The translations under genes and the position numbers were made by a program. A stretch of 64,000 nt of DNA from Promethearchaeota archaeon (GTDB taxonomy: Archaea > Asgardarchaeota > Lokiarchaeia > Sigyniarchaeales > SOKP01): positions 75,764-139,763 of the forward strand of contig JBHLNF010000010.1 in NCBI GenBank assembly GCA_048937405.1, in the 5' to 3' direction. A model generated the notes under the pieces. The model saw nothing but the letters and a program-made list of their open reading frames with translations, did not search any database and had not been told where the DNA came from. Positions 567 to 63,193 of this stretch are shown in pieces (position 1 is the stretch's first letter; the number at the start of each line of letters is the position of its first letter).

Positions 567-1748
567 CTATTTCTTTACATAACAACGAACTGGAAAACCG
601 TTTGAAATTGCTGCTAGACAACGATTGCAAGAAATACAAGCTGCCTTTTCTTGTTTTCCTTCTTTAAAAGATTTAACTAAATAAGGTTCCCTAATGAATG
701 GTCTTGCCATTGAAATAAAATCTGTAAAGCCTTTTTCTATAATTTCTTCAAAATAAGCTTTATTTCTCAAACCACCTACGACAATTATGGGTAATTTACC
801 AATAATTTTTTTGATTTCTTTTGCAGCTTCAACATTATAACCTTCCTCTAATTCAAATTTTCCTTTCATGTCTAATAAAGATTTTTCTGCTAATGGTTTT
901 ATCTTATCTGGCAAATATTCAGTAAATTCTTTGACTGGAACAGTTCCACGACACATATTAAATATAGAGAAAGTTGTTGAACCAGCGCTAACCTCAATTC
1001 CATCAATACCTGATTTTTTAAGCCATTTTGCATATTTACATGCTAAGGGGATATTGATTCCTTTTCCTGGAGTGTAATCTACAGTATTAAGTTTTAATAA
1101 AAGAGCCATATCTCTTGGAATGACTTTTTTAATGTTTATTATAATTTCTTTGGTATACTTAAAACGATTTTCATCTGTTCCGCCCCACTTATCTTTTCTA
1201 CGATTATAAAAAGGAGAGAGAAACTGATTGATTAAGTATCCATGAGCACCATGCAATTGAATTGCATCCGCGCCTGCTTCAACGGCACGCCTAGCAGCCT
1301 CAATAAATGATTCAATTGACTCTTGGATATCTTCTTCGGTCATTTCTTTTGGTTTGGTAAAGGTTATTGGATTCATAACTTGTTTGGAGGGCCCCAAAGG
1401 AAGAGACCCTATTATTGCTTTATGTGTTTGCAATCCTCCATGTCCTATTTGAAATGCAACTTTTCCATCTTCTCTATGAATCATGTTAACCATTCGTTTT
1501 AGACTAGGAATTAAATCATCATTATGAATTCCTGTTTGATTTTTGGATATCTGTCCTAAAGGATGCACATACATAAAGCCTGTAATAATTAAGCCAATTT
1601 CACCTTTAGCAAGGACACTAAAAAGTTTAATAAGTTGTTCAGATACTTCACCAGATTCATGAGCCAAATTGGTAACTACTGCTGAACGTACAAAACGATT
1701 TTTTACTTCTATTTTTCCAATATTCATTGATTTAAATAAAATTGAAAT
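567..1748 (-). CDS. NADH:flavin oxidoreductase, Old Yellow Enzyme family
   Basis: KNRFVRSA, QIGHGG, LHGAHGYLINQFLSP, ARPFIREP motifs and C-terminal CISCNRC. Proposed start is ATT at 1748 (SILFKSMNIG) behind GGTGAT; the ORF track starts at 1727. Confidence 0.92.
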   Translation of the reverse strand: MSILFKSMNIGKIEVKNRFVRSAVVTNLAHESGEVSEQLIKLFSVLAKGEIGLIITGFMYVHPLGQISKNQTGIHNDDLIPSLKRMVNMIHREDGKVAFQIGHGGLQTHKAIIGSLPLGPSKQVMNPITFTKPKEMTEEDIQESIESFIEAARRAVEAGADAIQLHGAHGYLINQFLSPFYNRRKDKWGGTDENRFKYTKEIIINIKKVIPRDMALLLKLNTVDYTPGKGINIPLACKYAKWLKKSGIDGIEVSAGSTTFSIFNMCRGTVPVKEFTEYLPDKIKPLAEKSLLDMKGKFELEEGYNVEAAKEIKKIIGKLPIIVVGGLRNKAYFEEIIEKGFTDFISMARPFIREPYLVKSFKEGKQEKAACISCNRCLAAISNGFPVRCYVKK

Positions 1749-1975
1749 AATTTATCACCATTTTTACACATTTCATAAATTTTTACTTAATTTTGAGATC
1801 CCTTAGTAAATATAATAGTTCATTAATAGTTGAGGATGATTATAACATTTAAAATTCTTAGATAATATTATTATCTAATTTTTAATGATTTCTTTTATTT
1901 AAATAAAGAAAACACACTTTTTAATTAAAATAAAACCTTTAAATTGTTTAAAGAAACTTAATATAACAGAATATT

Positions 1976-2341
1976 TTGTCTATTTTGGAAATTTTGAAAG
2001 AAAAAAGATGTCGGGTTATTAAGAAATACGAATCGCCATATACAGATCCTTTTTTAATAACTAAGGGAGAAATGTTATCTATTAGTGAAAAAGATAGTGA
2101 ATGGTCAGGATGGATATGGTGTACCAAAAAAAATGGAATAAGTCGTTGGGTACCTGAGAGTTATCTTGAAATCGAGGGAAATTCTGGTAAAGCAAACCAA
2201 GATTATAAGGCAACAGAACTTTCTGTTAATGTGGGAGAAGAATTATTCATTGAACAAGAAGAAGCTGAATGGTATTGGGTTACAAATCAGCAAGGAAAAA
2301 GTGGTTGGGTTCCAATTAAAAATGTTCAATTAATTATGTAA
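1976..2341 (+). CDS. Tandem SH3-domain protein
   Basis: Two SH3-like units: KYESPY..ITKGE..WSGWIWC..WVPESYL and QDYKATELSVNVGE..WYWV..GKSGWVP. Confidence 0.8.
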   Translation: MSILEILKEKRCRVIKKYESPYTDPFLITKGEMLSISEKDSEWSGWIWCTKKNGISRWVPESYLEIEGNSGKANQDYKATELSVNVGEELFIEQEEAEWYWVTNQQGKSGWVPIKNVQLIM

Positions 2342-2921
2342 CGAGATCGGATTTCATACTATTTTGAAACAATTTTAAATGATTTAATCCTTTACTATTA
2401 AGGATTTCTTTCAACATAATCTTAAAGACTATTTCTACGTTCTCTCCTGTTTTTGAAGAACATTCAAGATAAGCATATAATTTGTGTGAATATAATAAAT
2501 CTAATGCTTCTTCTTTTTTACAAATTCTCTGTTGTTCAAGATCTAATTTGCTGCCAACCATTAATATAGGTAGTTTTCCCATTATTTTTCTAATTTCTGG
2601 AAGCCAATTAACTATATTAGTTAGACTTTCATAATTAGTAAGGTCAAACATAAAAATTCCACCAGATGATCCTTTAGCATATGAGGGAATTAGGAATTTA
2701 AACCTATCTTCACCACCAAAATCCCATACTTGAAGTATTATTTGTCCATTCTCAAAATAAAAATATTTTATATGTATCGTTGCTCCAAGAGTTGATTTAA
2801 TGTATTCATGATATTTATTTGTAATATAACGATCTATTAATGTCGTTTTTCCAACACCACTATCACCAAAGATACAAATTTTATATGTTAAATTTATCCG
2901 ATCTTCATTAGATCCTTCCAA
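2334..2921 (-). CDS. Rab-like small GTPase
   Basis: G1 GDSGVGKT, G2 STLG, G3 WDFGGE, G4 SKLD, G5 SSK. No C-terminal prenylation Cys. Confidence 0.92.
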   Translation of the reverse strand: MEGSNEDRINLTYKICIFGDSGVGKTTLIDRYITNKYHEYIKSTLGATIHIKYFYFENGQIILQVWDFGGEDRFKFLIPSYAKGSSGGIFMFDLTNYESLTNIVNWLPEIRKIMGKLPILMVGSKLDLEQQRICKKEEALDLLYSHKLYAYLECSSKTGENVEIVFKIMLKEILNSKGLNHLKLFQNSMKSDLVT

Positions 2922-3330
2922 TTCTGAACATCCTCAACAAAAATAATGAATCTTTATAATTTAATTATAAAAAAACCTATTCTTATACCTTTAATCAAGA
3001 TTTGCTATTTCTTGAAAAAAATATTATATGGTGATTATTTTTTCATTAATTTAAATATTTTACTTTTCAAATTTGTAAATTATATTAGAATAAGAATTAA
3101 ATAACTTCTTATTTCGTATAAATAATAAAAATTTAAGATTTAACGTTTGATTATAAGACAGTAATTATTGGTGGTATTGAACTAAAGTTACAAAGGCAAT
3201 TCCAAACCATATAGTGTTCCACATAAAACAATTCATTGAATGGTTGGATTCCTAGTAAATTGTACAAATAACTAATAAAATATGAATCACTAAATATTAT
3301 CAACAAAACATTAAACTCATTTGTCAAATC

Positions 3331-4140
3331 ATGTCTAAATACTCAAATAGTAAAGATTGGTTCGAAATCATTAAGCAAAAAGATTATTTATATGTTATTC
3401 GAGAAAGATTAGATGAAATTGATCCTCGATTTCATACTACTTATACTAACTTATATTTAATTTTAGGTTCTCATTCTGCTTTATTGATCGATACTGGTTC
3501 TGGATTATTTCCACTTAGGCATATTGTAGATAATTTAATCTTAGATAGAAAATTAAAAGTAATAAATACTCATTCTCACTTTGATCATATTGGTGGAAAT
3601 CATGAATTTGAAAAAATTCACATTCATAATGAAGAACGAGAGCAAATTTTAAAACCTCATGGTATTTCTTTTTTAAAAGAATCTTCTAAAGAAATAACTA
3701 AACTTTATAAAAATAAGAATTATTCCCTTCCACCTGCTAAAGATATCCAACTGGTTAAAGATGAGGAAATTATAGATCTTGGGGATAAATCTGTGAAAGT
3801 TATTCATACACCAGGTCATTCATCTGGTTCAATCTGTTTATATACTAACGAAAATGAACTTTTTACGGGAGATACTGCTCATTATGGAACAATGTATCTT
3901 TCAGAAATAAGGTTTCCTATTTTTCTATCAAGTATCTCAAAATTACTTAATTTGATTCAAAATTTAGAAGATATTGAAATTTTTCCTTCTCATGAAGAAT
4001 TCGCTGTAAGCAAAGATTTACTGATAGATCTTAGGAAGGGTATAAATGAGATTGATAAGATTTGGGATACAAAAACTCGAGATGATTTTTTTGAAGCTTG
4101 GTTATTATCAGATGAAAATTTTAAATATTTGATATTTTGA
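3331..4140 (+). CDS. MBL-fold metallo-hydrolase
   Basis: IDTG, THSHFDHIGG, TPGHS, FTGD and PSH motifs. Confidence 0.9.
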   Translation: MSKYSNSKDWFEIIKQKDYLYVIRERLDEIDPRFHTTYTNLYLILGSHSALLIDTGSGLFPLRHIVDNLILDRKLKVINTHSHFDHIGGNHEFEKIHIHNEEREQILKPHGISFLKESSKEITKLYKNKNYSLPPAKDIQLVKDEEIIDLGDKSVKVIHTPGHSSGSICLYTNENELFTGDTAHYGTMYLSEIRFPIFLSSISKLLNLIQNLEDIEIFPSHEEFAVSKDLLIDLRKGINEIDKIWDTKTRDDFFEAWLLSDENFKYLIF

Positions 4141-4156
4141 ATTGATTTCTCTTTAA

Positions 4157-4612
4157 TTACATTTTCATTTTAACTGCTACTATTTCTCCTGTAGCACATT
4201 CTTTATCTCTAACAAAAAGCGAACATGACACATTAATTTTTCTTTCCTGCATATCCTTTATTCGCGCTCTGAAAATCCATGGTTTATTCAATGGGGCCGG
4301 ATTCAAAAATTTCACAGATAAACTTCCTGTTAAATATAACATTGGTGGATCTGTTCCAAATTCTCGACCTTCAGCTCTGTAAGCGGCGGAAATTGCAGTA
4401 TTAAGACAGTGACAATCAAGAATAGTGGCTATTATTCCCCCACATCCTCTACCAGGAAAGGCACAGTAATATTTTTTTGGTTTCCAAGTGCAAATACACT
4501 CTTCTCCTTCCCAATAGCTCTTTATTTGCAATCCATGTTCATTATTTTTACCACATCCCCAACAATAAGTGCCCATTTCAGGCCATTGATCTTGTATTGC
4601 TCTATTTTCCAT
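4157..4612 (-). CDS. PaaI/hotdog-fold thioesterase family protein
   Basis: CWGCG..N..GL, GGIIATILDC and T..LSVKFL.P motifs. Confidence 0.85.
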   Translation of the reverse strand: MENRAIQDQWPEMGTYCWGCGKNNEHGLQIKSYWEGEECICTWKPKKYYCAFPGRGCGGIIATILDCHCLNTAISAAYRAEGREFGTDPPMLYLTGSLSVKFLNPAPLNKPWIFRARIKDMQERKINVSCSLFVRDKECATGEIVAVKMKM

Positions 4613-4743
4613 AAATAATCCTCTTTTTTGATTTTATATAAAGTTATTTCTTTAATAATACGAAAATAATTAACTATCTTACTATAATTTCTTTATGAAA
4701 TATCAATATTATTTAAAAAGATTTTAAGGATAAATTGAGGAAA

Positions 4744-5457: not shown

Positions 5458-5560
5458 GTAAATTAGAATATTATATACCTTTAGAAAATTTACTTTTTAT
5501 AAATTAAAAGGATAAGTTAATGATGATGCGATATTTATAATAAAGAAAAATTAAAATAAG

Positions 5561-5896
5561 CTATTTTTCACTCAATCCAGTTAAGACTTGTTCCATTTTC
5601 TTTCGGTAAATTTCAAAAGCTTCTCTACCTTGTTTACTGAGTTTCAAAATGGTTTGTGGTTTTTTACCCTTAAACTTTTTTTCTACTTCCACGTATCCTA
5701 CAGATTCAAGTCTGTTTAAATGAGAAGATAAATTTCCATCAGTTAATCCTGTTTGATTTCTCAAGAAAACGAAATCAGCACTCTCAACAACATATAAAAC
5801 TGACATAATCATCAATCTTGATGGTTCATGAATGATTTTATCAATGTCGCTGAGTGGTTGGATAATATCCTCTGATTCCGCTTTCTTCTTTGCCAT
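5561..5896 (-). CDS. Winged-helix transcriptional regulator (MarR/HTH_34-like)
   Basis: IHEPSRL.IM..L, F..L....LTDGNLSSHL..LE..GYV...K.F.GKKP.T pattern. Last gene of the minus-strand operon. Confidence 0.9.
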   Translation of the reverse strand: MAKKKAESEDIIQPLSDIDKIIHEPSRLMIMSVLYVVESADFVFLRNQTGLTDGNLSSHLNRLESVGYVEVEKKFKGKKPQTILKLSKQGREAFEIYRKKMEQVLTGLSEK

Positions 5897-5906
5897 TGAA
5901 ACACTT

Positions 5907-7184: not shown

Positions 7185-7187
7185 TTT

Positions 7188-7826: not shown

Positions 7827-7829
7827 TTT

Positions 7830-8477
7830 TTAAGCCATCTCCTCTTTTGATAAAGGGTATTTCCGGAGAAATTTAATTAAAGATACAATTCCCATGATTA
7901 TTGTTATCCCACTTATAATGCTAAATACTACTAGAACGTCAAAAGGTTCAGGTATAAAAATTGATAATAAATCTGACAAAAAGAAACTTAATCCCACCAG
8001 TAAGCCGATGATATAAAAACGAGGATGTTGGATGAAATATGCCGCAAAACATACAGGAGCTGTTATAAAGAGTAATCCTAAAATTAATCCATCTAAATAT
8101 CCTGGAAATTCTAAGCTTAATTCAGGATTAGTAAATCGGATTAAAAATAGGATTAAAAGAATAAGGAGATTTATAGATAATACAACTAAAGTTTTTAATT
8201 TACGTCCTTTTCGTTTAATTCCAAATTTTACTATTCCTAATCTAGGTTGAGTAATCATTTTTTTTGCAGTTAAAAAAAAAGCTAACCCAATTCCAATAAA
8301 AATAATTGGAATAAATTTATCGAGAGGATTAGGCACCACAGGACTAAGAGTCATCCCCATACCAAGCCCTAGAATTAATATACCAAAATAGATATCTAAA
8401 ATTCCATCTTCAAGGGTAGATCTCCATGTTTTTTTCTCAATTTCCTTTAAATCAATCTTTTCTGTTATTTTTTTCAC
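7830..8477 (-). CDS. Multi-pass membrane protein, paralogue 4 of 4
   Basis: Same family. The called GTG is part of a GGTGA SD; alignment to paralogue N-termini suggests a start at ATA 8468 (ITEKIDL vs MTENVDL). Confidence 0.85.
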   Translation of the reverse strand: MKKITEKIDLKEIEKKTWRSTLEDGILDIYFGILILGLGMGMTLSPVVPNPLDKFIPIIFIGIGLAFFLTAKKMITQPRLGIVKFGIKRKGRKLKTLVVLSINLLILLILFLIRFTNPELSLEFPGYLDGLILGLLFITAPVCFAAYFIQHPRFYIIGLLVGLSFFLSDLLSIFIPEPFDVLVVFSIISGITIIMGIVSLIKFLRKYPLSKEEMA

Positions 8478-8491
8478 CTTAATATTATATT

Positions 8492-10357: not shown

Positions 10358-10364
10358 GTGAAAT

Positions 10365-28124: not shown

Positions 28125-28679
28125 TTAAACTTTTATAAAGATCCCTGCGAATCTTTTACCGACTTTTGATAATCCAATTTTAGCAAATTCCCATTTTGAA
28201 ATTTCTCCTTCCTTGCATTTTTGCCAAGAATTCTTGAGGACTTTCCAATCTGAACCTAAATTTTCTTTCATATAATCTTCAATATTCTCATTTTTCTCCA
28301 TAAGTTGTTCAATTAAAGTTGCTACATCTGAAATATCTAATCTAATCTTCTTAGTATCTTCCCTTATTTCAGAAATCTTAGAATCCATTTCTTTTACCTT
28401 GTTATAGAGTTTAGCCAGCCGTTTATGTTTAGGATCCAAATTTCTGAACTTTTTTATCATATTTTTCCATGAATTCTTAAATTTTCCCCAATCACTCTCA
28501 ACATTTTTCTTTACTTCTAAGAAATACTCCCCAGATTTTTCAGAAAATTCTTCAATATCATCTCTCATGTCTATAAAAAATTGGCTGAGTGGATTTTTTT
28601 TATCCTCTTGTATTAATAAAATATCATTTTCATTTTGAGGTATTTCTTTATCGTCAGATTCTTTCATTTTCTTGATCAA
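28125..28679 (-). CDS. Uncharacterised coiled-coil protein
   Basis: Heptad-rich centre and a helical C-terminal domain LGSDW..LK..W..CK.GEISK. Confidence 0.7.
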   Translation of the reverse strand: MIKKMKESDDKEIPQNENDILLIQEDKKNPLSQFFIDMRDDIEEFSEKSGEYFLEVKKNVESDWGKFKNSWKNMIKKFRNLDPKHKRLAKLYNKVKEMDSKISEIREDTKKIRLDISDVATLIEQLMEKNENIEDYMKENLGSDWKVLKNSWQKCKEGEISKWEFAKIGLSKVGKRFAGIFIKV

Positions 28680-28885
28680 CCTTGGAATTCTATTTATATT
28701 TATCTTAAGAATAAATAAGAATTGATAACTATTTATTACTAATGGTTTCTCTCGATTTGGATAACACTTTAAAGATACAAAAACCTTTGGATCAATAATA
28801 CTATTGGAAATTAAGGCTTTTCAAATTATAAAAAAAAACTTTACTATTATTTATAAGATAAAATAATCAATTGTGAGAAAGGAAT

Positions 28886-34467: not shown

Positions 34468-35238
34468 TTAAGCTTTACCGTACTTTTTGAATAATATAAT
34501 TCCTCCAATAAATATCACAAGACTGAACATTATAAGTATTATCAAATCCCACCAAATCCTTAAATTACTTAGAGCAACACCATTAAATAGGAGAGTTAAA
34601 GCATCAGATACATAATACAATGGCATGAACATACCAATTAATTGTGTTTCGGGGGGTAAGGGGTATAAACCCGAAGCAAGCATCTGTTGTGGAAACATAA
34701 AAATCCAGACAATCCCCCCTGCAGCTTTAGGATTCTTTGCAATAGTTGCTGTTAATAATCCAAAGCCAATGGAGGATAGAGAGAAAACTATCATAAACAC
34801 AAACGCAAGGGTAATCCCCGCAATTGCTCCATCAGGACGATATCCTAATAGAAAAGAGATAATACCAACTATTATTACTTGGATAATCGCCATACACATA
34901 TTTGATATCACATGACTTCCCATGAATTCTACCGCCGTCATGGGCGTCGTATTGATTCTTTTTAACAATCCTTGTTCTCGATCTTCTGAAAAAGATAAAG
35001 CAACAGGCATTGCCATGAAAAGCGCGCTAATAGCAAATAATCCAGGAACCATAAAATCAAAAATGTTCCCTGTTTGTCCTGTCCAACCATAGTCTTCAAC
35101 AACTACTGACCCAAACGCAAGTCCCATTGTCAGTGTTAGTGCTATGGGGAGTAAAAGTATTATAAACAATGCTGTTGGTACCCTTATAAGAGCTTTAAAC
35201 TGTAATTTTACGAGAGCTAAAATTCTTTGGCGTTTCAT
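34468..35238 (-). CDS. ABC-2 type transporter permease
   Basis: DRE.G.LKR..TTP, SG..P and PL.Y..DAL motifs; 6 TM. Confidence 0.9.
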   Translation of the reverse strand: MKRQRILALVKLQFKALIRVPTALFIILLLPIALTLTMGLAFGSVVVEDYGWTGQTGNIFDFMVPGLFAISALFMAMPVALSFSEDREQGLLKRINTTPMTAVEFMGSHVISNMCMAIIQVIIVGIISFLLGYRPDGAIAGITLAFVFMIVFSLSSIGFGLLTATIAKNPKAAGGIVWIFMFPQQMLASGLYPLPPETQLIGMFMPLYYVSDALTLLFNGVALSNLRIWWDLIILIMFSLVIFIGGIILFKKYGKA

Positions 35239-35240
35239 TT

Positions 35241-36050
35241 TTAAAATCCCTCCAAGATTCTTCTTCCTGTAATTTTCATGAAGACTTCCTCCAAATCTTT
35301 AGCACTATGCTTCTCGATTAATTCTTTTGGTGATCCTATAGCAATTAATTTACCGTAATCGATTATAGCTACCCTATCACAAAGTGCTTCTGCTTCTTCA
35401 ATATAATGTGTCGTTAAGATAATGGTTTTATTCTGTTCTTTTAATGAACCAATAAATTTCCAAGTTGTACGCCTGACTCGTGGGTCCATTCCGACCGTAG
35501 GCTCATCTAAAAATACAATAGGAGGATCACTTATCAAAGCTATAATAAGATTTAATTGCCGTATCATTCCACCACTATAATTTTTTGCTTTTCTATTACT
35601 AGCTTCTAGTAAGCCTAATAAATCTAGAAATCTATCCATCCTTTCATATATCTTCTCTTTTTTCACGAGATGTAAATTTCCGAAAAATTCGATATTTTCC
35701 TTAGCATTTAAAAATTTATATACTGCTGCTTCTTGTGGACATACGCCAATTAATTCCTTGATCTTGTTGAGGTCTTTTTTAACATTATATCCTCCTACAA
35801 AAGCGTCTCCTTCAGTTTGGTTTATTAAACCACACAAAATGTTTATTGTAGTGGTTTTTCCTGCCCCATTTGGTCCTAAAAGCCCAAAAATCTCCCCTAT
35901 GTTGATTGAAAATGATATTCCATCAACAGCTTTGACTTCCTTGATAACCTTCTTGCCGGCATAAATTTTTCTCAAATCTTTGACTTCAATGGCATTCGGA
36001 TTATCAGATCCAAATGTTAATTCATTGATTTTTGATTTTGATTTTGACAT
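35241..36050 (-). CDS. ABC transporter ATP-binding protein (DrrA-like)
   Basis: GPNGAGKTT, YSGGM, FLDEPT and LTTHY motifs. Confidence 0.95.
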   Translation of the reverse strand: MSKSKSKINELTFGSDNPNAIEVKDLRKIYAGKKVIKEVKAVDGISFSINIGEIFGLLGPNGAGKTTTINILCGLINQTEGDAFVGGYNVKKDLNKIKELIGVCPQEAAVYKFLNAKENIEFFGNLHLVKKEKIYERMDRFLDLLGLLEASNRKAKNYSGGMIRQLNLIIALISDPPIVFLDEPTVGMDPRVRRTTWKFIGSLKEQNKTIILTTHYIEEAEALCDRVAIIDYGKLIAIGSPKELIEKHSAKDLEEVFMKITGRRILEGF

Positions 36051-41576: not shown

Positions 41577-41693
41577 TACCTATATGAATAGCACTCTATT
41601 TTGTTTTGTAATTTAATATATTTAGTTTAAATAAAACACTTCTTTATTAGAACTAATATAATTTGTTCAGAAATCAAATTAAAATGTGATTTT

Positions 41694-43049
41694 ATGAAAA
41701 AAAAAAATTACTTTCAGATTTTATTAGTCTTCTCTTTTTTTACTCTTAGCTTTACTTTATTAGGAAATACTGTGATTGATATTGATAATTTACCAGAGTT
41801 AGATAATCTTGATTTTAATCTTAAACAATCGGCAAATATGACAGAAGTCTTTGAATGGAATCAAATATGGGATAATGAATCTAGTGGATTTGATCTGGGT
41901 ATTGCTTTTGATTCTTTTAATAATATCTATGTTGCAGGATATACTGCAGATGAAGATGAAAAAATTAATATTTTAAAGTATAATGCTTCAGGGAGTCTTC
42001 AATTTCATATAGCATGGCCTACAAATCAGTTAGAACTTGGAACGGGGGTAGCAATAGATTCTCAAGATAATATTTATTTTATTGCAGGGAACTTTAATGA
42101 CACTTCAAGTGATTATAATCTAACCTTAGTAAAATATAATAGTTCGGGATATCACCAATGGAATATATCATGGGGAGGATTAAGTTATGAGGTAGCTTGG
42201 GATTTAGCCATAGATAATTCAGATAATATATATGTTGTTGGAAATACTTGGGGTTATAGTAATGACTTGCTTATTGTAAAATTTAATAGCGCAGGTGATT
42301 ATCTGTGGAATAAAACAGTTGGGGGAACAATACCCGAAACAGGTGTAGACATTGTTTATGACTCATCTAATAATTTTTATATTATTGGTACAGTGTCAAA
42401 TTATAATCAAGGAACAGACAACATGTTTTTATTTTGTTTTGATCAGAATGGAAATTATCAATGGAATACTACATGGGGTAATTCCCTTAATATAAGGGGT
42501 TCTGGAATTGCTTTGAATTCATTAAATGAATTATTTACTGTAGGAACGTTCAATAATACAAATTCAGGAAATATGGATGTTATAATGGTGTGTTTTGATA
42601 ATAATGGTAATTATAAATGGAATAAAACATGGGCAACTCTTGAAAGTGAAGTTGGAAATAGTATTACAATAGACTCCAAAGATAATATTTATATTACGGG
42701 TGTTATAGCTAATTACACTTCTCAGGATGCTGATTTATTATTGTTAAATTATAACAATTCTGGAGATTATATATTAGACCGGATAATAACAGGTCCTCCT
42801 GAAACTGCAGGTATTAACATTAAAGCAGATACTTCAGATAATATTTATGTAGCAGGTATTATTGGTAATTATAGTCTAAATGGATATGATATTTTCCTTG
42901 GAAAAGTAAATCCTGAAATATTTCCAGAATCCACACCAGATGAAAATGGTAAGAAGATATTTGGCTTTGATCTCATATTATTCTTGAGTATATTTTTTAT
43001 TTGTTCTACTGTTACAATCAGAAAGTTAAGAAAAAGCATTAATAAATGA
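41694..43049 (+). CDS. SBBP-repeat beta-propeller surface protein with C-terminal anchor
   Basis: Repeats of IA.DS.DNIYV.G...L.KYN.SG..QWN.TWG, signal peptide, and IFGF + TM + basic tail. Confidence 0.85.
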   Translation: MKKKNYFQILLVFSFFTLSFTLLGNTVIDIDNLPELDNLDFNLKQSANMTEVFEWNQIWDNESSGFDLGIAFDSFNNIYVAGYTADEDEKINILKYNASGSLQFHIAWPTNQLELGTGVAIDSQDNIYFIAGNFNDTSSDYNLTLVKYNSSGYHQWNISWGGLSYEVAWDLAIDNSDNIYVVGNTWGYSNDLLIVKFNSAGDYLWNKTVGGTIPETGVDIVYDSSNNFYIIGTVSNYNQGTDNMFLFCFDQNGNYQWNTTWGNSLNIRGSGIALNSLNELFTVGTFNNTNSGNMDVIMVCFDNNGNYKWNKTWATLESEVGNSITIDSKDNIYITGVIANYTSQDADLLLLNYNNSGDYILDRIITGPPETAGINIKADTSDNIYVAGIIGNYSLNGYDIFLGKVNPEIFPESTPDENGKKIFGFDLILFLSIFFICSTVTIRKLRKSINK

Positions 43050-45918: not shown

Positions 45919-46845
45919 TTAGCAGTTTAAATCATCTATAACACTGCAAATATCTTTTACTCTACTTCTTAAAGTTACTTCTGTAATTTTTGCAATTTCT
46001 GCCACTTCAACTTGAGTTTTTCTAAAAATAGTTTCTTTAGCAACTAAATATAACGCAGCAGCAGCTAACCCTTTTGGGTCTTTTCCAATAGTAGGTAATC
46101 CTTTTTTAGAGCTTTGTTGAAGAATATTTAGCGCTTTTATTTTTATTTCTTCAGGTAATCCTAATTTATTACCAAAAAGAAATATGAGCTTATCAGCGGA
46201 AATTGGATGATATTCTAAATGTAAAATTGGAAGAATCTGCCTGATAATCATACCTAAAGACCTAAATAATGTACGGTTAGGTACCATAGAGGCATCCGCC
46301 ACATCATCAAGTAATTTTGGGAATTCATGAATTCTTATAGCAGCATATAATGAAGCGGCAATAAATCCTTCAATTGACCTTCCCATCGTTAGTTTTTGCT
46401 TAGCTACTTCACAATATATTCTCCAAGCTGTTTCAGTAATGTAAATAGGAATATTAAGTTTTGAAGCAAACAATTTTAATTTTGGTTGTGCTTCCCAAAA
46501 GTTTCTTTCTAAAGAATTGATAAGAGATCTTTGAATTTTTGAAAGTCTTGAAAACAGTAAATTACTTTTAGCATTTAGAAGGTTTCCATTGGAATCAATT
46601 TTATTACTTGGAAGTATTGTTCTTGGACCAAAGTCTCTCCATGAAGGCTCAGTTTGTCTTCTTTTATTAACTTCTTCAACATTATAAGCTCTTCTTTCAC
46701 TTTCTACTAAAATTTGACCTAGAATAGTTCCACAATTTATACAAACCTTACTCCCTCCTGTATATTTAATACATGGATTATCACAACAATGTTCTACTTC
46801 TGGACAATAATTAATTGGTTCCTGCCTATTTTCATATTTATAAAT
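45919..46845 (-). CDS. tfb: Transcription initiation factor IIB (TFB) paralogue
   Basis: Two cyclin repeats (GRSIE...AASLY and GKDP.GLAAAALY...TQ.EVA....ITEVTLR.R). The frame is open 124 codons upstream of the called TTG and encodes the Zn ribbon (CCDNP...VCINCG) and ERRAY. Proposed start is ATT 46845. Confidence 0.9.
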   Translation of the reverse strand: MYKYENRQEPINYCPEVEHCCDNPCIKYTGGSKVCINCGTILGQILVESERRAYNVEEVNKRRQTEPSWRDFGPRTILPSNKIDSNGNLLNAKSNLLFSRLSKIQRSLINSLERNFWEAQPKLKLFASKLNIPIYITETAWRIYCEVAKQKLTMGRSIEGFIAASLYAAIRIHEFPKLLDDVADASMVPNRTLFRSLGMIIRQILPILHLEYHPISADKLIFLFGNKLGLPEEIKIKALNILQQSSKKGLPTIGKDPKGLAAAALYLVAKETIFRKTQVEVAEIAKITEVTLRSRVKDICSVIDDLNC

Positions 46846-47203
46846 ATTAAATTATCCCCCTCATATTTGTTTTTAAAATTCCGATAATTTTAAAAAAAGA
46901 TATTCAATTTTGTTTCCGATATTATGATAAAAATGTAAGTAGAAAAAATTGTGTCTTATAATTAATAAGCATTTGTCCAGTTTCTCAAGGTAATAATCTC
47001 AAAAAAAATTTAATCTCTTTTACATATTAATTAATTTCATCCATTAAACCGAAAATTCTTTTTTTTTATCTTAATAAATTAAAAATTTTGTGAGATTAGC
47101 TATTTTCTTATTAATCTCAAAATCTAAAAACTTTTATATAAAAATGTCAAAAGTTTATGTACAATAAATTAAAAATTATAAAATCTAAAATTGGGTAAAT
47201 TTA

Positions 47204-49143: not shown

Positions 49144-50316
49144 TTATAGAGGAACTATTTTTCCATTTTTTATTAAGTATTTTTCCTTTAGTATATTTGG
49201 ATTTTCCATAATTGTTTTCATGAGGTGGGCATCAGTTTTTTTCTTTTTCTCAAAAATATTAAGTATTGGTGTTTCACCAATAGCCATTTGTGCTAATTCA
49301 GTAATATAATATGAATTGATATTCTTTTTAATAGCATATGTCGATAAATTTGAAAGACACCCTGTGCAAATATGAGCTATTATATCTGCATTTATATTTT
49401 CTGCTTCTGATATTCTCTCTTCTGCGGTTTTAGTTCCCATAGCTCTACTTGATGCAGAAACAGGCAAACCACAACAATGAGAATTTTCTCGATTGTATTT
49501 CATTTCTACAACCTCTGCGCCAAGAATCTCAAGAAATTCCCTTGGACCATCGTATATTTTCTTGTCGTATCTCCTCCACGTGCAGGGATCTTGAAATGCG
49601 ATTCTTTTATTTATCTTTTGTTTGATTTTGAACTCACCTTTATGATATTTTTCAATAAAATAATCAATAACAGTTTGAGCTTCTATGTTAAAGTCTTCAA
49701 TAATCGAAGGATAAGTAAATCTAATCATAGTATCACATCCTGGACAGAAAGTAATAAGTTTTTTTATTCCAAGTGTCTTGAGTTTTTCATATAATTCTAA
49801 TCCTTTTATTTTACCCTCTTCTTCACCAAAACAAGAATATGCATAAGCAGAACAACAATATTTCATTCCACCCAATAAGGGGAAATCCTCAAACAATTTG
49901 GTTTTAGCCAACTCTTGATAAAAATAAGAAATACCACACCCCAAATAGAACATTGTATCACATTTTGGGGGATTTTCATATTTAATTATTTGTTGTTGTT
50001 TTTGCTCCTTATCAATCTCAAATCCAATTGCCATTAAGTTATAAGGCATTTCTTCACTAATAATTCCTAAACCTCTAACACCATTCTCACGATAGTTTTT
50101 CAATCGTATTTCTCTTATTAGTTCAATTGGATTTGATCCCATAGGACAAATTATATTACAGTAACCACAACCTGTACATTCTTTAATTATTTTTTCTGAT
50201 GTTTTCGTCTCAATCATTTTAATAACTTCTTCTTTAGCTTTCTGTATAGGCATTTGAATTGTTGGACACTGTTCAAGACATATACCACATTTTAGACAAG
50301 TTTCTTCATTAAAAAT
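49144..50316 (-). CDS. Fe-S oxidoreductase with CCG domains (HdrD/GlpC-like)
   Basis: CTGCGYCNIICP plus an upstream in-frame CLKCGICLEQCP, YLGC, CCS, CPGC, QDPC and CCG. Proposed start is ATT 50316 behind GAGGT. Confidence 0.88.
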   Translation of the reverse strand: MFNEETCLKCGICLEQCPTIQMPIQKAKEEVIKMIETKTSEKIIKECTGCGYCNIICPMGSNPIELIREIRLKNYRENGVRGLGIISEEMPYNLMAIGFEIDKEQKQQQIIKYENPPKCDTMFYLGCGISYFYQELAKTKLFEDFPLLGGMKYCCSAYAYSCFGEEEGKIKGLELYEKLKTLGIKKLITFCPGCDTMIRFTYPSIIEDFNIEAQTVIDYFIEKYHKGEFKIKQKINKRIAFQDPCTWRRYDKKIYDGPREFLEILGAEVVEMKYNRENSHCCGLPVSASSRAMGTKTAEERISEAENINADIIAHICTGCLSNLSTYAIKKNINSYYITELAQMAIGETPILNIFEKKKKTDAHLMKTIMENPNILKEKYLIKNGKIVPL

Positions 50317-50347
50317 TTTAATAACCTCAAATATTTTATTTTAAAAT

Positions 50348-54634: not shown

Positions 54635-55735
54635 TTAGTCAACTTCAATAAACTTCGGAGTAGGTATAAATACTTTTCTTAATCCTGTTTTTTTCAGAGT
54701 TATAGCTTTCTCAGGACAATGATGAGCACAGACTCCACATCCAATACATCTTTCTACATTCACAATAGAATGATTACCTTCCAACTTTGTTGCTTCCATA
54801 GGGCATTTTTCAACGCAAATATCACAACCAATACATTTCTCTGGATCAACAATTGCTATGGAAGATGTCAGCGTATGAAAAGGAAAAATCCCTCGTTTAA
54901 AGAATTGAAAGATCTGACAACAACATGTACAACAATTACAAATAGTTAGTTCCTCTAATTCAGGATTTCGCTTAGCATGGAATGCTTTATGTACAACACC
55001 ATAATCTTCAGCTTTTTTTACCATTTTAAGTGCGTCTTCTTTCGAGATAGGTTCTGCAAAATCGTGATCTATAAGGAATTTAGCCCAACTTCCAAAACAT
55101 AGACAATTAATATCTGAAATACCTAATTTACATGGTTCATTCAGGTTTTCTTTCCAACTTCTACAATAGCAGTGATTGGTACTAATTAAATCGTTTTTTT
55201 CTATAATCTTTTTTATATCTTCATAAGGTAAAACTAATTCCTGACCCACCTCAACTTCTTCTTCAACAGGAATAACTCGATCTAAAGGTGGAGTATCCTT
55301 AAAATGTTTTTCTATCACTTCATTAAAATTTTGAGCCCATTTCTTCAACTCATCAAAAAATTTATGGTATAATTTGGCTAATTTTTTCTGTTTTTCACCT
55401 CTTTCACCTCTCATAAATGGAAATTCAAAAAGTCCGTAAAGAGGAGTACTTAAATGATAAACCATGATGCCCGTTGTTCTACTCGGGATTCCTACTAGTA
55501 TTCCCTTATTCATTAATCCCTTGAGCATATTATTTAATGCCGCATCGTCCAATTCAGTTTTAGCTTTGATTTGATTAATATTCAATGAACGCTTTCTAAA
55601 AATCTGAAGAAATTTAATTTGATCTTCGGTTATTAGAGTTCTTAATATCTCTAAGAATGTATCGTTGACCGAAAAAGGGATTACTCCCGCATTTATAAAA
55701 TTTCTTGCTACTTTATTCCATAATTTTTCTGAAAT
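54635..55735 (-). CDS. 4Fe-4S binding protein (wHTH-like N-terminus, C-terminal 2x[4Fe-4S])
   Basis: CYCR, ICNCCTCCC, CIGCDICVEKCP and CIGCGVCAHHCP. The frame extends 50 codons upstream to ATT 55735 behind GAGGTGA. Confidence 0.88.
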   Translation of the reverse strand: MSEKLWNKVARNFINAGVIPFSVNDTFLEILRTLITEDQIKFLQIFRKRSLNINQIKAKTELDDAALNNMLKGLMNKGILVGIPSRTTGIMVYHLSTPLYGLFEFPFMRGERGEKQKKLAKLYHKFFDELKKWAQNFNEVIEKHFKDTPPLDRVIPVEEEVEVGQELVLPYEDIKKIIEKNDLISTNHCYCRSWKENLNEPCKLGISDINCLCFGSWAKFLIDHDFAEPISKEDALKMVKKAEDYGVVHKAFHAKRNPELEELTICNCCTCCCQIFQFFKRGIFPFHTLTSSIAIVDPEKCIGCDICVEKCPMEATKLEGNHSIVNVERCIGCGVCAHHCPEKAITLKKTGLRKVFIPTPKFIEVD

Positions 55736-56106
55736 TTTTATTCACCTCATTGATTTTATTGGATATTTTAATGATAATTAAAGTAAAAATTCTATATATC
55801 TCTATTTTTTTATAACAATCTTCTTTATATCTCTTGAGATTGACAAGAAATAGTTATTTATATTTCAAAATATTAAAAATCCTCTTTATTCAATTGAGAA
55901 TTAGAGAGTTGATTGGATTTTTGAAAATATGGATTTTCCCGGATCACATGAAAGAACTCAACCTTTTCATATTATATCCAAGCATTATTTAAGCTCTAGG
56001 TAATAAAGGATTAAAAGAACTCCTTTTCTAATAATATTCAAATTAAATTTATATATGATCGTCGCTATTAGACAACTTAACTACTTTAAGTAAAGTGGGG
56101 TTTTAT

Positions 56107-58422: not shown

Positions 58423-58497
58423 CTAATTCATAATTGAGATTTTTTTTTTTATTTATTTCTTTATTTTTTTTGACTAATTAGAATTATCCCCGTTAAT

Positions 58498-61400
58498 CTA
58501 TGCCTCAGGTAATAAAATAACAAAAGAATCTCCTTCAACCCATATTTTTCCATCGTAATTATCTAGGATTCGCTCGACTAAAAGAAACCCTAGAATTACT
58601 TCTTTAATCTTACTATCTTTTTCTCTTTCTTTATGGAAAATCATTTCTTTTCTCATATTTAATATATCTTTTTGATAATCAACGAATTGTATTTTAAGGT
58701 AATTTATGTTATCCTCTCGGCTTCTAAAGATAATAATTTTAATCTCAATAGTTGGGTTTCTATTGTATCTAATGGAACTAATAAGGATATTGATAAAAAC
58801 ATCTATTAAAAATTTATCAGCTTTTACATATAGATCCTCAGAGGGATGTTCAACAAGTATATTTATTTTCTTATTTGAATAACTATTAGTAATAAATTCT
58901 TTAACCTCATCAATGACATTATTAAGATTTACTGATTCAATTAAAACTTTTGTTTCATTAATCAATTTTAATTGTTCTACTATATATATCAATAAGCGAG
59001 CATTTATACATTGTTCTTTAATAAAATCCAGTAATTCTCGTTTAGAACTAATTATAAGTTGATTCTCTTGCTTTTTACTTTCATCTAATTGTAATTGAAT
59101 ATTCTTTATTATAGAATTTACATCATTTATGAATAGTTCCTTGTAAAAATATTCTCTATCTAATTCTTGATGCATAGATTCTTCACTTATACGTAAGTTT
59201 TCTTCAGCTAATTTACGTAGGATTACATTTTTAAGAATTTCTGGAATAATAGTTAATAAGTCAAAATTTTCTTCTATCCAATAATTCTTATCTGCTATAT
59301 TATCAAAACATAATATTCCTTCTAAGAGTTGATTAATTTTTATTGAATATACTAAAAAGTTTTCAACTTTTTGATTTTCAAGAAAGTACTTTAAATTCAC
59401 TGCTTCTCTTGGAAGATTCTTCATTCTTTTAACATAAAAATAATCAAATTCTTTTAATCTCTTGATTAACCATGGAAAGTTATCAATTTCTATCTTTTCA
59501 GGTAATATAATTTGAGGCGTAATCAACTTTCGAGACCAGAAATAATTTCTTTTTATAATATTAAATTTACTATTAAAAATGTAGAGGTATACTCGTGTAG
59601 CATCAACAAATTCACCGATATCTCTAAGTGAATCAATTATTGCTTGATTAAATTCGTGTATACCTACAAACCTAGATACAATTCCAGTAATAATAGCCTT
59701 TAATTTAGATATCTTTTTTAATTCAGTTTCTATTTTTTTCATTTCTGTTATATTCTGACAAATAATTTGATAGAATGTTTCATCACCAATATTAACTAAG
59801 GATGATTGCAGATTTACCCAGATGAGGTTACCATTTTTTTTATAAAGTTGAATTTCTAATGGAGAATAAATCTTACCTCTTTCTTCTTTCAGACTTTTAA
59901 GAACATCTACTAAATAATCTTTATGTATTATTGATAGATCTACAAATTTCCTTCCCATTAGTTCATCTTTAGTATATCCTAAGGTTTCCTCTAGTACAGG
60001 ATTGAAATCAACTAAGGTTCCATTAGAATCAATTAAGAAAATAGAAAAGGGTGAATTTTCGAAGAGATGACGATACTTTATTTCAGAATGCTTTAATTTA
60101 ATTTCTGCTTCTACTCTCTTACTAATATTTCGAATTATATATTGGACAAACAATTGTCCCCCCATCTGTACTTCATTCACATTAATTTCTACTGGAATTA
60201 AATTGCCGGAACTATCAATCACTTCTAATCTTAAAGGAAATGGATAATTAAGTTCGTCAAATACTTCTTCATTAAAATCTATATTAATTATATCACTTAA
60301 TATTTGGCTTGAATGCAAACCAATAAAATCCTCGAATGGTCGTTGAAATAAATTCTCCGCTTCTTTGTTCGCATCCATTATAATTCCTGAATTTTTATCA
60401 ATTATTATAATAGCATCTCGAGCAGCTTTAAATAAAGCCTCATAACGCAATTCAGCTATTTTTAGTGCTTCAATTGAAGGACGATATAAATCAATTTGAT
60501 GATTTATTGTATTATAAATAACTTCAAGAACATTTATTACTTGATTTTTATCTAAATAATTGCTTTTTAATTCACCAAATTGTTGAACTATAAAAGAACT
60601 AAATTGGTTAATGATATTCTTAGGTATATTTTCATTGTAATAAATTATTAAGCATAATGGAAATACACCACCTCTTATACTTTCATCTTCAACAGAATCA
60701 AAATAAATTGCTGCATTTGAATTTAGGTGAGGAATAGGAAGAATTACTGAGGTTGGTTTAATCTGATCTCCTCCAAAAATAAACTGTGATATTGAAAAGC
60801 TTTTTATAGCAATCAGTTCTGGATTTTCAAAAGCATCTTCAGGATAAATTGCATCAATTTTAATTCCAAGATTTTCATCCCAACGACAAAATATTATCCC
60901 AACATCTTTTCTGGGCGAATATTGCTCAACTCTCTCAGCGATTTTAAGTGTAAGCCAATTAAATGCCTCATCAATATTTATGTTTTTAATCGCACTTGTT
61001 AAAAACGATTTTATTGGTCTCTTTCCAAGCTTCTTTACACCCATAGCTTCTTCTAATTCATTTAAATCTTGTTTTTTCAAATCAACCTTATTAAAAAGGA
61101 TAAGTAGTGGTAATTCACTTAATTCGGGTTTTCCAGCAATTTCATGTAGTAATTCACGTGCAAATGAGAATTTTATTTTATCCATGACATCTAAAACAAA
61201 AATTAATCCATCTTGATTTTTTAGATAAGGTTTCCATAGTTGCTTAACTCTGTATTTTCCCGGTATATCATATGTTAATAAAGAGACATTATTGACTAAA
61301 ATTCTAGAAATATCTACATTTATAGTAGGAAATGTTGTTTTTGACACGGATTTTCTTCTAGTCCTGATAATAGTCGTCTTTCCTGCTAAAGAAAGCCCAA

Positions 61401-61887
61401 AGATTAGTACTTTTGCCTCTTTTTGCTCAAAAATAACTTCTTCTTCAGGAAAAGAAGTATAATATGTATTAAACAATGTTTTTATTTCTTCTAGTTTATT
61501 AGGATCTCCTTTGTCAATTCTAGATTCTACATAAAAAGCTTTATATGCATTTTCGATTTTTCTGAATTCCTCTACAAAACTCTCCAGAAACTCTTCTGCA
61601 TAAGTAGCTTTAATTTTAGATTTACTATCAATAATTAATGAAACTAAAAGGCGCTCCTTTTTTGTATTTGAATATTCGCTTGGAATGTCAAAGATTAGAT
61701 TAGCTGTATGAAAAGTTCCAAAAGTATGCTTAAAAAAACCATTTTCATAGAGATCTATCAATATAGGAACCTGTTTAATATCATCTCTTTGAATATTTTC
61801 AGGCGATTTCAAAAAAATATAAGGAGGAAAGTATGGATTGCGATGACTTAAAATTAAAATTCTCATATCTAAATATCCTCTAATCAC
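58498..61887 (-). CDS. Multidomain signalling protein: longin/uDENN-like, Arf-like GTPase, longin/uDENN-like, PAS, PAS, GAF, degenerate histidine kinase
   Basis: G1 GLSLAGKTT, PT, DIPGK, NKVD, SAI. PAS starts RYEALFKAARDAIIIID and KYRHLFENSPFSIFLID. GAF RVYLY...GILCFD....W. The kinase tail has degenerate H/N/G1/G2 boxes. Confidence 0.85.
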   Translation of the reverse strand: MIRGYLDMRILILSHRNPYFPPYIFLKSPENIQRDDIKQVPILIDLYENGFFKHTFGTFHTANLIFDIPSEYSNTKKERLLVSLIIDSKSKIKATYAEEFLESFVEEFRKIENAYKAFYVESRIDKGDPNKLEEIKTLFNTYYTSFPEEEVIFEQKEAKVLIFGLSLAGKTTIIRTRRKSVSKTTFPTINVDISRILVNNVSLLTYDIPGKYRVKQLWKPYLKNQDGLIFVLDVMDKIKFSFARELLHEIAGKPELSELPLLILFNKVDLKKQDLNELEEAMGVKKLGKRPIKSFLTSAIKNINIDEAFNWLTLKIAERVEQYSPRKDVGIIFCRWDENLGIKIDAIYPEDAFENPELIAIKSFSISQFIFGGDQIKPTSVILPIPHLNSNAAIYFDSVEDESIRGGVFPLCLIIYYNENIPKNIINQFSSFIVQQFGELKSNYLDKNQVINVLEVIYNTINHQIDLYRPSIEALKIAELRYEALFKAARDAIIIIDKNSGIIMDANKEAENLFQRPFEDFIGLHSSQILSDIINIDFNEEVFDELNYPFPLRLEVIDSSGNLIPVEINVNEVQMGGQLFVQYIIRNISKRVEAEIKLKHSEIKYRHLFENSPFSIFLIDSNGTLVDFNPVLEETLGYTKDELMGRKFVDLSIIHKDYLVDVLKSLKEERGKIYSPLEIQLYKKNGNLIWVNLQSSLVNIGDETFYQIICQNITEMKKIETELKKISKLKAIITGIVSRFVGIHEFNQAIIDSLRDIGEFVDATRVYLYIFNSKFNIIKRNYFWSRKLITPQIILPEKIEIDNFPWLIKRLKEFDYFYVKRMKNLPREAVNLKYFLENQKVENFLVYSIKINQLLEGILCFDNIADKNYWIEENFDLLTIIPEILKNVILRKLAEENLRISEESMHQELDREYFYKELFINDVNSIIKNIQLQLDESKKQENQLIISSKRELLDFIKEQCINARLLIYIVEQLKLINETKVLIESVNLNNVIDEVKEFITNSYSNKKINILVEHPSEDLYVKADKFLIDVFINILISSIRYNRNPTIEIKIIIFRSREDNINYLKIQFVDYQKDILNMRKEMIFHKEREKDSKIKEVILGFLLVERILDNYDGKIWVEGDSFVILLPEA

Positions 61888-62092
61888 TATTGTTTAATTA
61901 TTTAAGTTCTATTACTGTATAACCAAATTATTTTATAAAAAAAATATGGTTGTAATATCTGCGTTAGTGTAGACATTAATTCTTTTGAGATAAAGTATTG
62001 AAATTAATTATATAATATTAGCACAATAATAAAAATTCGAATAAAAAAATATTTTAAATTTCTAGTTAATTCTTCAGATAAAAAAGATTAAA

Positions 62093-62719
62093 TTAATTTT
62101 TCTTTGATTCCTCATCCAATATTATATTAATAACTTTTTTAAAAACATCGTAAGGTTGAGCGCCAAAAATTAGTCTATTTCCTATAATGAATGCAGGAAC
62201 GCCATTTATTCCCATTTTCCTTATTTCATTTAAGGATTTTTGCAAAATTTCAAAAGGTTCATTTGTATGCAAGTAGTGATCTATTTCATTCTTATCTAGT
62301 CCGATCGATTCAGCAAGATCTAATAATAGATCTATACTTCCAATATCTTTTCCTTCAAACCAATAAGCTTCCAATACTAACTTATGAAATTCTTCAAATT
62401 TCCCCTCTTTTCGAGCATATTCAGAAATAAAAAGAGCTAAACGTGAATTAGGTAAAAATTCTGAAAACTTAAGTGTTAATCCATCCTCATCCGCAAGACG
62501 TTTAATATGGGTACGTAATCCTTCTAAATATCCCTTATGAGCAGCCAAGTCTTCTTTTAGAACCCCCCAAGCTGGTGTTTCAGGATGGATTTCGAAGGGT
62601 CTCCATTCAACAGTAAGATTATACTCTTTTTTGAGTTTTTCTATTCGATGATATCCGATATAGCAAAATGGACAAATATAATCAGAATAAGCTATGACTT
62701 TTAATTTTGTTTGACTCAT
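62093..62719 (-). CDS. DsbA-family (FrnE-like) oxidoreductase
   Basis: SDYICPFCY, WRPFEIHP and GINGVPAF...GAQP. Start taken as ATG 62719. Confidence 0.9.
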   Translation of the reverse strand: MSQTKLKVIAYSDYICPFCYIGYHRIEKLKKEYNLTVEWRPFEIHPETPAWGVLKEDLAAHKGYLEGLRTHIKRLADEDGLTLKFSEFLPNSRLALFISEYARKEGKFEEFHKLVLEAYWFEGKDIGSIDLLLDLAESIGLDKNEIDHYLHTNEPFEILQKSLNEIRKMGINGVPAFIIGNRLIFGAQPYDVFKKVINIILDEESKKN

Positions 62720-63004
62720 ATCTGTTTTTATAAAAAAGAACAATCTTATATACTTTTTTAAAATAAAAATTAGTCAATCTTTTATAATTTGATTAATCCA
62801 GTCATTCATATTAATTCTCAAAAATAAATGGTCATTATTTCATTGTTTTAAGAGGTTTAGTGGATTTCACACCAAAGTCTAATTATTAAAGTCATTAATT
62901 CACGTAAGGAAACATTTTTATTAAATTATTCAATTAAAAAAATGTGTCATTTTTAAATTTAAAATAGATTTATATTATTTATCTGTAAAAAAGGTGAAAC
63001 CATC

Positions 63005-63193
63005 ATAGATATATGCCAATCTTGTGGAGAATCAAAATCCACTACAAACGTTCAAGATGAATTTCCCCTCATATTCATTAGTGATAATCCCCCAACTAGT
63101 TATCTAATATGTGAAGATTGTAAAAGAAAGTTAGTAAAATATGGGTTTCTTATCTCCAAAGATGGAAAATGTACTGCTTTTATAGAAACTTAA
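63005..63193 (+). CDS. 62-aa Zn-finger protein with non-canonical start (not in ORF track)
   Basis: IDICQSCGES...YLICEDCKRKLVKYGF...ET*. GGTGA at 62993-62997 and ATA 7 nt later. No in-frame ATG/GTG/TTG after the upstream TAA (62960). Confidence 0.6.
   Translation: MDICQSCGESKSTTNVQDEFPLIFISDNPPTSYLICEDCKRKLVKYGFLISKDGKCTAFIET

Follow-up and report, generated by a model that had tools for sequence, protein, structure and literature searches.

The DNA examined here (the window) is a stretch of 64,000 nucleotides, G000:C10:75764-139763, from the metagenome-assembled genome (MAG) of a Promethearchaeota archaeon of the Lokiarchaeia, which comprises 4.47 Mb in 29 contigs with a GC content of 28.9%. 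An earlier inspection of the letters alone, to which we refer as the sequence-only reading, had pointed to six genes in which a Shine-Dalgarno (SD) motif and a short spacer are followed by ATT or ATA in place of an ordinary start codon, and all six arrangements are indeed present (Table 1). We consider below whether such codons (ATT, ATA or ATC, together ATH) act as translation starts in genes of this lineage. Pfam searches of the window proteins confirmed the OYE (Oxidored_FMN), TFIIB-repeat, CCG plus Fer4, and Fer4 families.

Table 1. Positions of the SD motifs and of the coding sequences (CDS) or open reading frames (ORF) that follow them in the window
Feature	Position	Strand	Remark
SD of OYE gene, GGTGAT	1754..1759	-	5 nt before ATT
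OYE (Oxidored_FMN) CDS from ATT 1748-1746	570..1748	-	Pfam match from residue 4
SD of membrane paralogue 4, AGGTGA	8474..8479	-	5 nt before ATA
Membrane paralogue 4 CDS from ATA 8468-8466	7833..8468	-	ATA kept in 12 species
SD of TFB paralogue, G-rich GAGGGGGAT	46854..46862	-	8 nt before ATT
TFB paralogue CDS from ATT 46845-46843	45922..46845	-	TFIIB repeats (Pfam)
SD of CCG/Fer4 gene, GAGGT	50324..50328	-	7 nt before ATT
CCG-domain Fe-S protein CDS from ATT 50316-50314	49147..50316	-	Fer4 match from residue 2
SD of 4Fe-4S gene, GAGGTGA	55742..55748	-	6 nt before ATT; its TGA is an in-frame stop at -3
4Fe-4S protein CDS from ATT 55735-55733	54638..55735	-	ATT also in closest orthologues
GGTGA before Zn-finger ORF	62993..62997	+	SD or codons GGT-GAA; 7 nt before ATA
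Small CxxC...CxxC Zn-finger ORF, putative ATA start 63005	63005..63193	+	no ATG/GTG/TTG anywhere in ORF

We next give the distances of these codons from in-frame stops and from ordinary starts (ATG, GTG or TTG, here called canonical; plus and minus numbers count codons from the ATH codon). A TAA stop lies one codon upstream of the ATT of the OYE gene, the next ATG being at +7, and two codons upstream of that of the TFB paralogue, in which the first 124 codons contain no ATG, GTG or TTG and the first canonical start is at +124. The first ATG of the CCG gene is at +21, past the first ferredoxin motif, CxxCxxCxxxCP, and the first canonical start of the 4Fe-4S gene is at +50.

Each window protein was compared with 30 related genomes, 18 of them in the same genus, and the codon homologous to the proposed start was read. 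This alignment of N-termini, a check suggested by the sequence-only reading, revealed that, at five of the sites, as many as 18 species of the genus have ATG, GTG, ATT or ATA at the same codon. The claim that ATT and ATA are SD-guided starts in unrelated genes was thereby strengthened, in that orthologues swap ATG, GTG, ATT and ATA at one codon. The homologous codon of the CCG gene is ATG in G005, G014 and G008, GTG in G018 and ATT here, and in G006 and G009 it is ATA behind GAGGT, where the nearest canonical starts follow only at +33 and +19. That of the OYE gene is ATG in G018, G016, G014 and G001, ATA in G012, and ATT in G008 and G007, where it follows (GA)GGTGA and a 6-nt spacer. The ATT of the 4Fe-4S gene recurs in the closest orthologues (G004 and G002), and the same codon is ATG or TTG in more than 12 other orthologues or paralogues, which read MSEKLWYKVARN. 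The TFB paralogue keeps its ATT in G018, G005, G014 and G008 (70-80% amino-acid identity); in all four orthologues GGGGA or GGG stands at the same distance, with no canonical start ahead of the Zn ribbon. The remaining TFB paralogues start with ATG-AGT-TAT.

The membrane gene requires a separate account, because the statement that no canonical start precedes the ATH codon failed for it: an in-frame GTG, overlooked in the sequence-only reading, lies at -3, inside its own SD. The ATA start itself is supported by the orthologues. AAGGTGA and ATA are conserved in 12 species, and in G008, G018, G010 and G015 a 6-nt spacer places the GTG of the SD out of frame, the first canonical start being at +30 to +36; we therefore take ATA to be the start of this gene. 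The homologous codon in G013 is ATG. A flag of an internal TAG in the membrane paralogues was rejected, since it marked merely the terminal stop codon.

As for the small Zn-finger ORF, the arrangement and the absence of a canonical start stood, and the ATA start is unproven. The ORF had no homologue in the 30 relatives searched; one homologue of 88% identity is a CDS called by PGAP in another Promethearchaeota MAG. The TTG at which that CDS was started, 10 codons upstream, is TTA in the window, and the bases equivalent to GGTGA are AGTGA. The ORF is real and conserved and lacks a canonical start here, and its start at ATA is putative.

Given that orthologues have ATG or GTG at the ATH position, that a stop codon is found shortly before it and that conserved domains begin ahead of any canonical codon, we regard the ATH position as the start. 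On this comparative evidence, together with the statistics given below, ATT and ATA, and more rarely ATC, ACG and CTG, are very probably genuine SD-dependent near-cognate start codons in this Lokiarchaeia genus.

How widespread are such starts in the genome? A 16S rRNA gene was looked for in the MAG and not found, and the SD motif was therefore derived from k-mers enriched upstream of ATG. The motif so deduced is GGAGGTGA(T), and a minority of genes use it, in agreement with a review that describes SD sequences as rare in Lokiarchaea (PMC12993045). In the open frame ahead of the first canonical start, counting only codons 10 or more positions away from that start, 2.4% of ATT and 2.9% of ATA codons follow an SD, compared with 0.4-1.0% of TTT, AAA, AAT, TTA and TAT codons. 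In ORFs of 100 codons or more, the SD rate over the first 40 codons is 1.31% for ATT/ATA and 0.70% for AT-only controls (p=4e-9), and at a spacing of 6 there are 41 ATT/ATA against 11 control codons (odds ratio 9.6, p=4e-14). Pairs admitted to a strict set had to combine a 6-mer SD with an ORF of 100 codons or more and to lack any upstream canonical codon; there were 166 of them, 102 of which have ATG, TTG or GTG in the start window. ATT or ATA occupies 44 of the 64 non-canonical pairs (69%; 24.8% expected, binomial p=1.7e-13). Decoys unlike the SD (one complement and two scrambles) remained at chance, with 29%, 22% and 20%, and a fourth, a scramble that contains GGTGA, gave 56%, like the true SD.

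The excess over control behind a 5-mer SD amounts to 46 ATT, 27 ATA, 16 ATC, 5 ACG and 3 CTG, with 409 canonical codons; behind a 4-mer SD it is about 120 near-cognates in total and 874 canonical codons. The near-cognate share grows with the strength of the SD, from 12% (4-mer) to 19% (5-mer) and 22% (6-mer). After GGTGA, the spacing peaks at 6-7 nt for ATH and is spread over 4-9 nt for ATG. Serine is the second codon in 17% of SD-ATH and 20% of SD-ATG cases and in 7% of controls, and in 78% of SD-ATH cases the segment that ends at the first canonical codon has a coding score, a figure that counts as supporting evidence only, as codon usage separates coding from non-coding sequence only moderately over 20 codons. 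With about 3,500 ORFs in this genome that look coding, these excesses indicate near-cognate starts in at least 90-120 genes, which sets a lower bound of about 3% for all genes and 12-22% for those led by an SD. The proposal that one gene in ten uses such a start must accordingly be confined to the window (5 verified of about 50 genes), where the density of verified ATH starts is above the genome average. ATG is still preferred, because a neutral third base would put ATH at roughly 85% of the starts led by an SD, and its actual share is about 20%.

We compared the signal with that of two other genomes, of which G006 is closed and belongs to the same genus and G026, with 31% GC, comes from another family. 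The 0.8 Mb tested of G006 gave 1.42% against 0.81% (p=0.02), with 9 against 4 at spacing 6, and an equal-sized part of the present genome gave 1.23% against 0.64%, with 13 against 1. No ATH signal was detected in the 1.2 Mb tested of G026 (0.83% against 0.55%, p=0.17; 3 against 3 at spacing 6). Since the signal is absent from G026, of similar GC content, AT content alone does not explain the pattern.

The strict list includes, among others, the genes for uL15, uS4, IscU, XPD, EtfA-Fer4 and an actin paralogue (Pfam). The uL15 gene keeps GGTGA-N6-ATT in most of the genus, and nine species lack a canonical alternative; in two species an ATG lies one codon upstream, and one sub-clade and all 11 genomes from outside the genus use ATG. 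The main lokiactin gene starts with ATG everywhere searched, and a second actin paralogue, found in only three of the species searched, has GAGGTGG-N7-ATT; two of the three have no canonical start before +48. Two actin genes that are 85% identical occur in this genome (G000:C7:555876-557018 and G000:C25:219072-220199, both on the minus strand). Taken across genes, ATT or ATA is conserved without a canonical alternative in the TFB paralogue (5 species), the membrane protein (12 species), XPD (6/6), EtfA-Fer4, IscU, DUF3592 and the actin paralogue; ATH stands at the ATG/GTG position of orthologues in CCG, OYE, 4Fe-4S, uL15, uS4, unk127 and a GyrI-like gene; and no canonical in-frame start precedes the conserved N-terminal residues in TFB, CCG, 4Fe-4S, the actin paralogue, XPD, EtfA and aIF1.

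Eight strict candidates were drawn at random; five were supported, one was false, one was ambiguous and one lacked an orthologue, an outcome that fits an estimate of roughly 85% true cases among strict candidates. The false positive, unk146, has an apparent SD that encodes Ala-Gly-Glu. The ambiguous candidate encodes an ABC ATPase with ATG at +6, and a beta-helix candidate had no clear orthologue among the relatives searched. A small conserved ORF (G000:C20:73761-74198, plus strand; L249-L252) extends upstream of its apparent SD, and its orthologues in G006 and G018 contain an in-frame TGA and TAA/TAG, so that decay or recoding of this gene may be at work.

The factor aIF1, like eIF1 in eukaryotes, is a gatekeeper against non-AUG starts. 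We noted that the aIF1 (SUI1) gene of this genome, outside the window at G000:C29:21977-22300 (minus strand), is itself a 107-codon ORF with no canonical start ahead of its N-terminal Zn knuckle, which matches the published archaeal motif CX2C..PX3C-phi-C (PMC6237735). Among 79 Promethearchaeota genomes (loci L359-L438), the N-terminal codon is ATT in 75, ATC in three and ATA in one. The 76 close copies have an in-frame stop 1-3 codons upstream, and their first canonical codon is at +15 to +106, past the Zn knuckle, often at +86 in a protein of 105 aa. In the three divergent copies (61-64% identity), a GTG or ATG is in frame 4-6 codons ahead of this position, and the sister-clade proteins begin four codons earlier, with M or V. 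The N-terminus of the gene in G006 is masked with N. The sequence AGGTTGTGA is located 10-18 nt upstream of the aIF1 start, is invariant in 74 aligned sequences and matches the anti-SD for pairing in 8 of its 10 positions; the AUU leader reads AGGUUGUGA...AUU. The genes for aIF1A and aIF2-beta of this genome have canonical ATG/GTG starts. Relaxed start-codon selection, an idea raised in the sequence-only reading, thus gains support on two counts, the lineage-specific signal and the ATT start of the gene for aIF1 itself.

A mini-ORF of five codons (GTG ... TAT/CAT TAA) occupies nucleotides -13 to +5 relative to the aIF1 ATT, is conserved in L359-L434 and has a stop codon overlapping this ATT. 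Its role may lie in termination-reinitiation, or it may simply result from the SD and a conserved second codon, AAA. A programmed +1 frameshift from this mini-ORF into aIF1 was rejected, because the P-site codons TAT/CAT cannot re-pair on ATT.

How might initiation at these codons proceed? Most probably, a strong SD duplex (the complement of GGAGGUGAU) positions the small ribosomal subunit, and initiation can then take place at AUU or AUA, or at the rarer AUC, ACG and CUG, about 6-7 nt past GGUGA, the start presumably being read by the ordinary initiator tRNA with anticodon CAU and a third-position mismatch. AT mutational pressure (29% GC) probably turns ATG into ATA or ATT, and the lineage may tolerate the loss of ATG because its start-codon stringency has been lowered. 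A negative feedback like that of infC could operate on aIF1, in which less aIF1 would allow more AUU initiation and hence more aIF1; such a loop would keep aIF1 at a level where SD-assisted initiation at AUU and AUA stays efficient. Whether this feedback is the cause of the tolerance of ATH in the lineage is doubtful, and we offer the idea tentatively. With comparable reserve, we speculate that a clade of at least 76 species has lowered its stringency through an aIF1 gene with an invariant AUU and an invariant extended SD, that this would be a third independent self-sensing circuit after infC and eIF1, and that AUU/AUA starts might then have spread to about 100 genes per genome, those for ribosomal proteins included. 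The ATH starts are long-lived in aIF1, the membrane protein, XPD and the TFB paralogue and flip in CCG, OYE and uL15; therefore, a regulatory role may apply to a subset of the ATH genes only.

Other explanations have to be weighed against SD-dependent initiation at ATH, and they are contradicted for most cases, though not for every single gene. If the real start were the next downstream ATG, GTG or TTG, and the open frame before it an untranslated leader, little would be lost from OYE (ATG at +7), the ABC ATPase candidate (+6) or IscU (+5/+6). The same assumption would deprive TFB of its Zn ribbon, B-reader and linker (+124), the CCG protein of its first Fe-S motif, the 4Fe-4S protein of 50 conserved residues, the actin paralogue of 48 residues, uS4 of its N-terminus MGDPRR, and aIF1 of its Zn knuckle or of nearly the whole protein (+86), and these segments are conserved at the amino-acid level across species; we consider a downstream start very unlikely. 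Base-call or assembly errors in the MAG that turned ATG into ATT or ATA, or decay into pseudogenes, would account for unk146, which looks decaying or recoded and has in-frame stops in relatives, and perhaps for uS4, whose ATA is unique to this genome. Yet the same ATH codons are found in many independently assembled species, including the closed chromosome of G006, the ORFs are intact and conserved, and contigs from another sample and another study that span the TFB start show no differences. This last comparison followed up the suggestion to check for ATG-to-ATT miscalls and confirmed the ATT. Artefact or decay as a general explanation is thus exceedingly improbable.

An SD-independent route, such as reinitiation after an ORF upstream or translational coupling to it, would suit the CCG gene, which starts 8 nt after the stop of the preceding gene, and the aIF1 gene with the conserved GTG mini-ORF whose TAA overlaps its ATT. 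It does not suit TFB, 4Fe-4S and OYE, which are the first genes after divergent intergenic regions, nor an enrichment that is tied to SD strength and to a spacing of 6-7 nt, and it is an improbable general account. A change in decoding (a second initiator-like tRNA, an anticodon modified to read AUU/AUA, or Ile as the initiating amino acid) also deserves mention, as the tRNA genes of this genome are heavily interrupted and ARAGORN and Rfam find only about 20 of them because of introns, which leaves room for a second initiator. A pattern search found an initiator-type tRNA gene on G000:C3 (minus strand, around 10337), GGGCTCATAA, with the anticodon CAT and the usual GGG/CCC anticodon stem; an intron follows its anticodon loop, and there are probably others. 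It was the one initiator-type tRNA found, and no initiator anticodon other than CAU was seen in this incomplete inventory. Moreover, most starts are still ATG, and ATH depends on a strong SD, which is what a single mismatch-tolerant tRNA would lead one to expect; we judge a decoding change to be highly unlikely.

Several observations nevertheless weigh against our interpretation. The 4Fe-4S orthologues of G004 and G002 lack a clear SD and have TTG at +4. TATA-like AT-rich boxes lie near some of the sites, and some leaders could be very short. ATT and ATA are synonymous codons for Ile, and their interchange alone is not diagnostic. The ATA of the essential uS4 gene (G000:C28:552390-552893, plus strand) occurs only in the assembly of this genome, which reads ATT-ATA-GGA-GAT-CCA where relatives read ATG-GGA-GAT-CCA, the codon being ATG in 28 of 28 relatives. 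The correlation with lineage rests on three genomes. Finally, the AUU start of infC in Escherichia coli coexists with a very rare use of AUU, so an AUU-started aIF1 gene alone is no explanation of a genome-wide relaxation.

In bacteria, infC, the gene for IF3, has an AUU start codon and is autoregulated, and pcnB has another rare start of the AUU/AUA type. The aIF1 arrangement resembles infC in that a near-cognate AUU stands behind an SD and that this AUU, which many species share, opens the gene of the very factor that rejects non-canonical starts. It differs in that aIF1 is a homologue of eIF1 and unrelated to IF3, and in that feedback is here only proposed; moreover, whereas infC and pcnB belong to a group of two or three genes, AUU/AUA starts are present here in about 100, including ribosomal protein genes. 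AT-rich organelle genomes also employ ATT and ATA starts (NCBI tables 2 and 5). Like them, the present genome is AT-rich and seems to accept AUH as initiator, but it belongs to an archaeon that is free-living, keeps the standard code, employs an SD mechanism and starts most genes at ATG. A further rare AUU/AUA-type start is that of Enterococcus EbpA (PMC4447247). Eukaryotic eIF1 is autoregulated through a poor AUG context, according to the citations of Ivanov et al. 2010 in PMC4705826 and PMC6237735. It belongs to the same SUI1 family, and in both cases the start site of a stringency factor is weak; in eukaryotes the weakness lies in the context of an AUG and scanning is used, whereas here the codon itself is AUU and is positioned by an SD. 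The aIF1 of Sulfolobus solfataricus discriminates against AUU in vitro, as summarised in PMC4705826, which likewise marks archaeal aIF1 as an AUU-rejecting factor. That work predicts the exclusion of AUU, yet the Lokiarchaeia lineage uses AUU widely. Hints of non-AUG archaeal starts exist in the "rare ATT start codon" with a plausible ribosome-binding site proposed for the Asgard tubulin Kari AtubA (PMC13394414) and in near-cognate sites in Haloferax ribosome profiling (PMC7261190), but these papers describe neither a systematic lineage-wide pattern nor aIF1. We found no description of an AUU-started aIF1 in the searchable literature, where the nearest is the one-gene remark on AtubA (PMC13394414).

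These starts have practical consequences for annotation. Gene callers of the Prodigal type admit only ATG, GTG and TTG, and genes of this clade are therefore truncated or lost; under canonical-only calling, the TFB paralogue would lose 124 residues and the actin paralogue 48. The predicted truncation by gene callers is evident in aIF1, which is called with 84, 76 or 65-70 aa, without the Zn knuckle, by JGI, ENA and Logan; some NCBI PGAP calls start it at the ATT (105 aa, MKDDDIC...). Truncated calls would bias inventories of Asgard eukaryotic signature proteins as well as estimates of completeness. Considering that this lineage stands next to the eukaryotic stem and appears to use AUU/AUA for uL15 and uS4 and AUU for aIF1, it should provide a test case for how the stringency of start selection is set and how it evolves. 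Its start codons may also illustrate how mutation and selection balance each other when AT pressure is strong, in that some starts flip among ATG, GTG, ATT and ATA and others are fixed as ATH in many species.

Some further observations concern related genes. Three paralogues of this genome (C16:15658-16383, C16:16541-17269 and C28:527627-528487) share the N-terminus ISIDW(A/V)K(A/V)EEKP and all have ATT or ATA behind AAGGTGA; their non-canonical start is retained through gene duplication. TFB homologues number twelve in this genome and 3-11 per relative, a large expansion of a general transcription factor. Three other ORFs of the window, 28125-28820 (minus strand), 41631-43049 (plus strand) and 34468-35298 (minus strand), have 20-47 codons before their first canonical start with no obvious SD-ATH arrangement, and they may have near-cognate starts that do not depend on an SD or simply open leaders.

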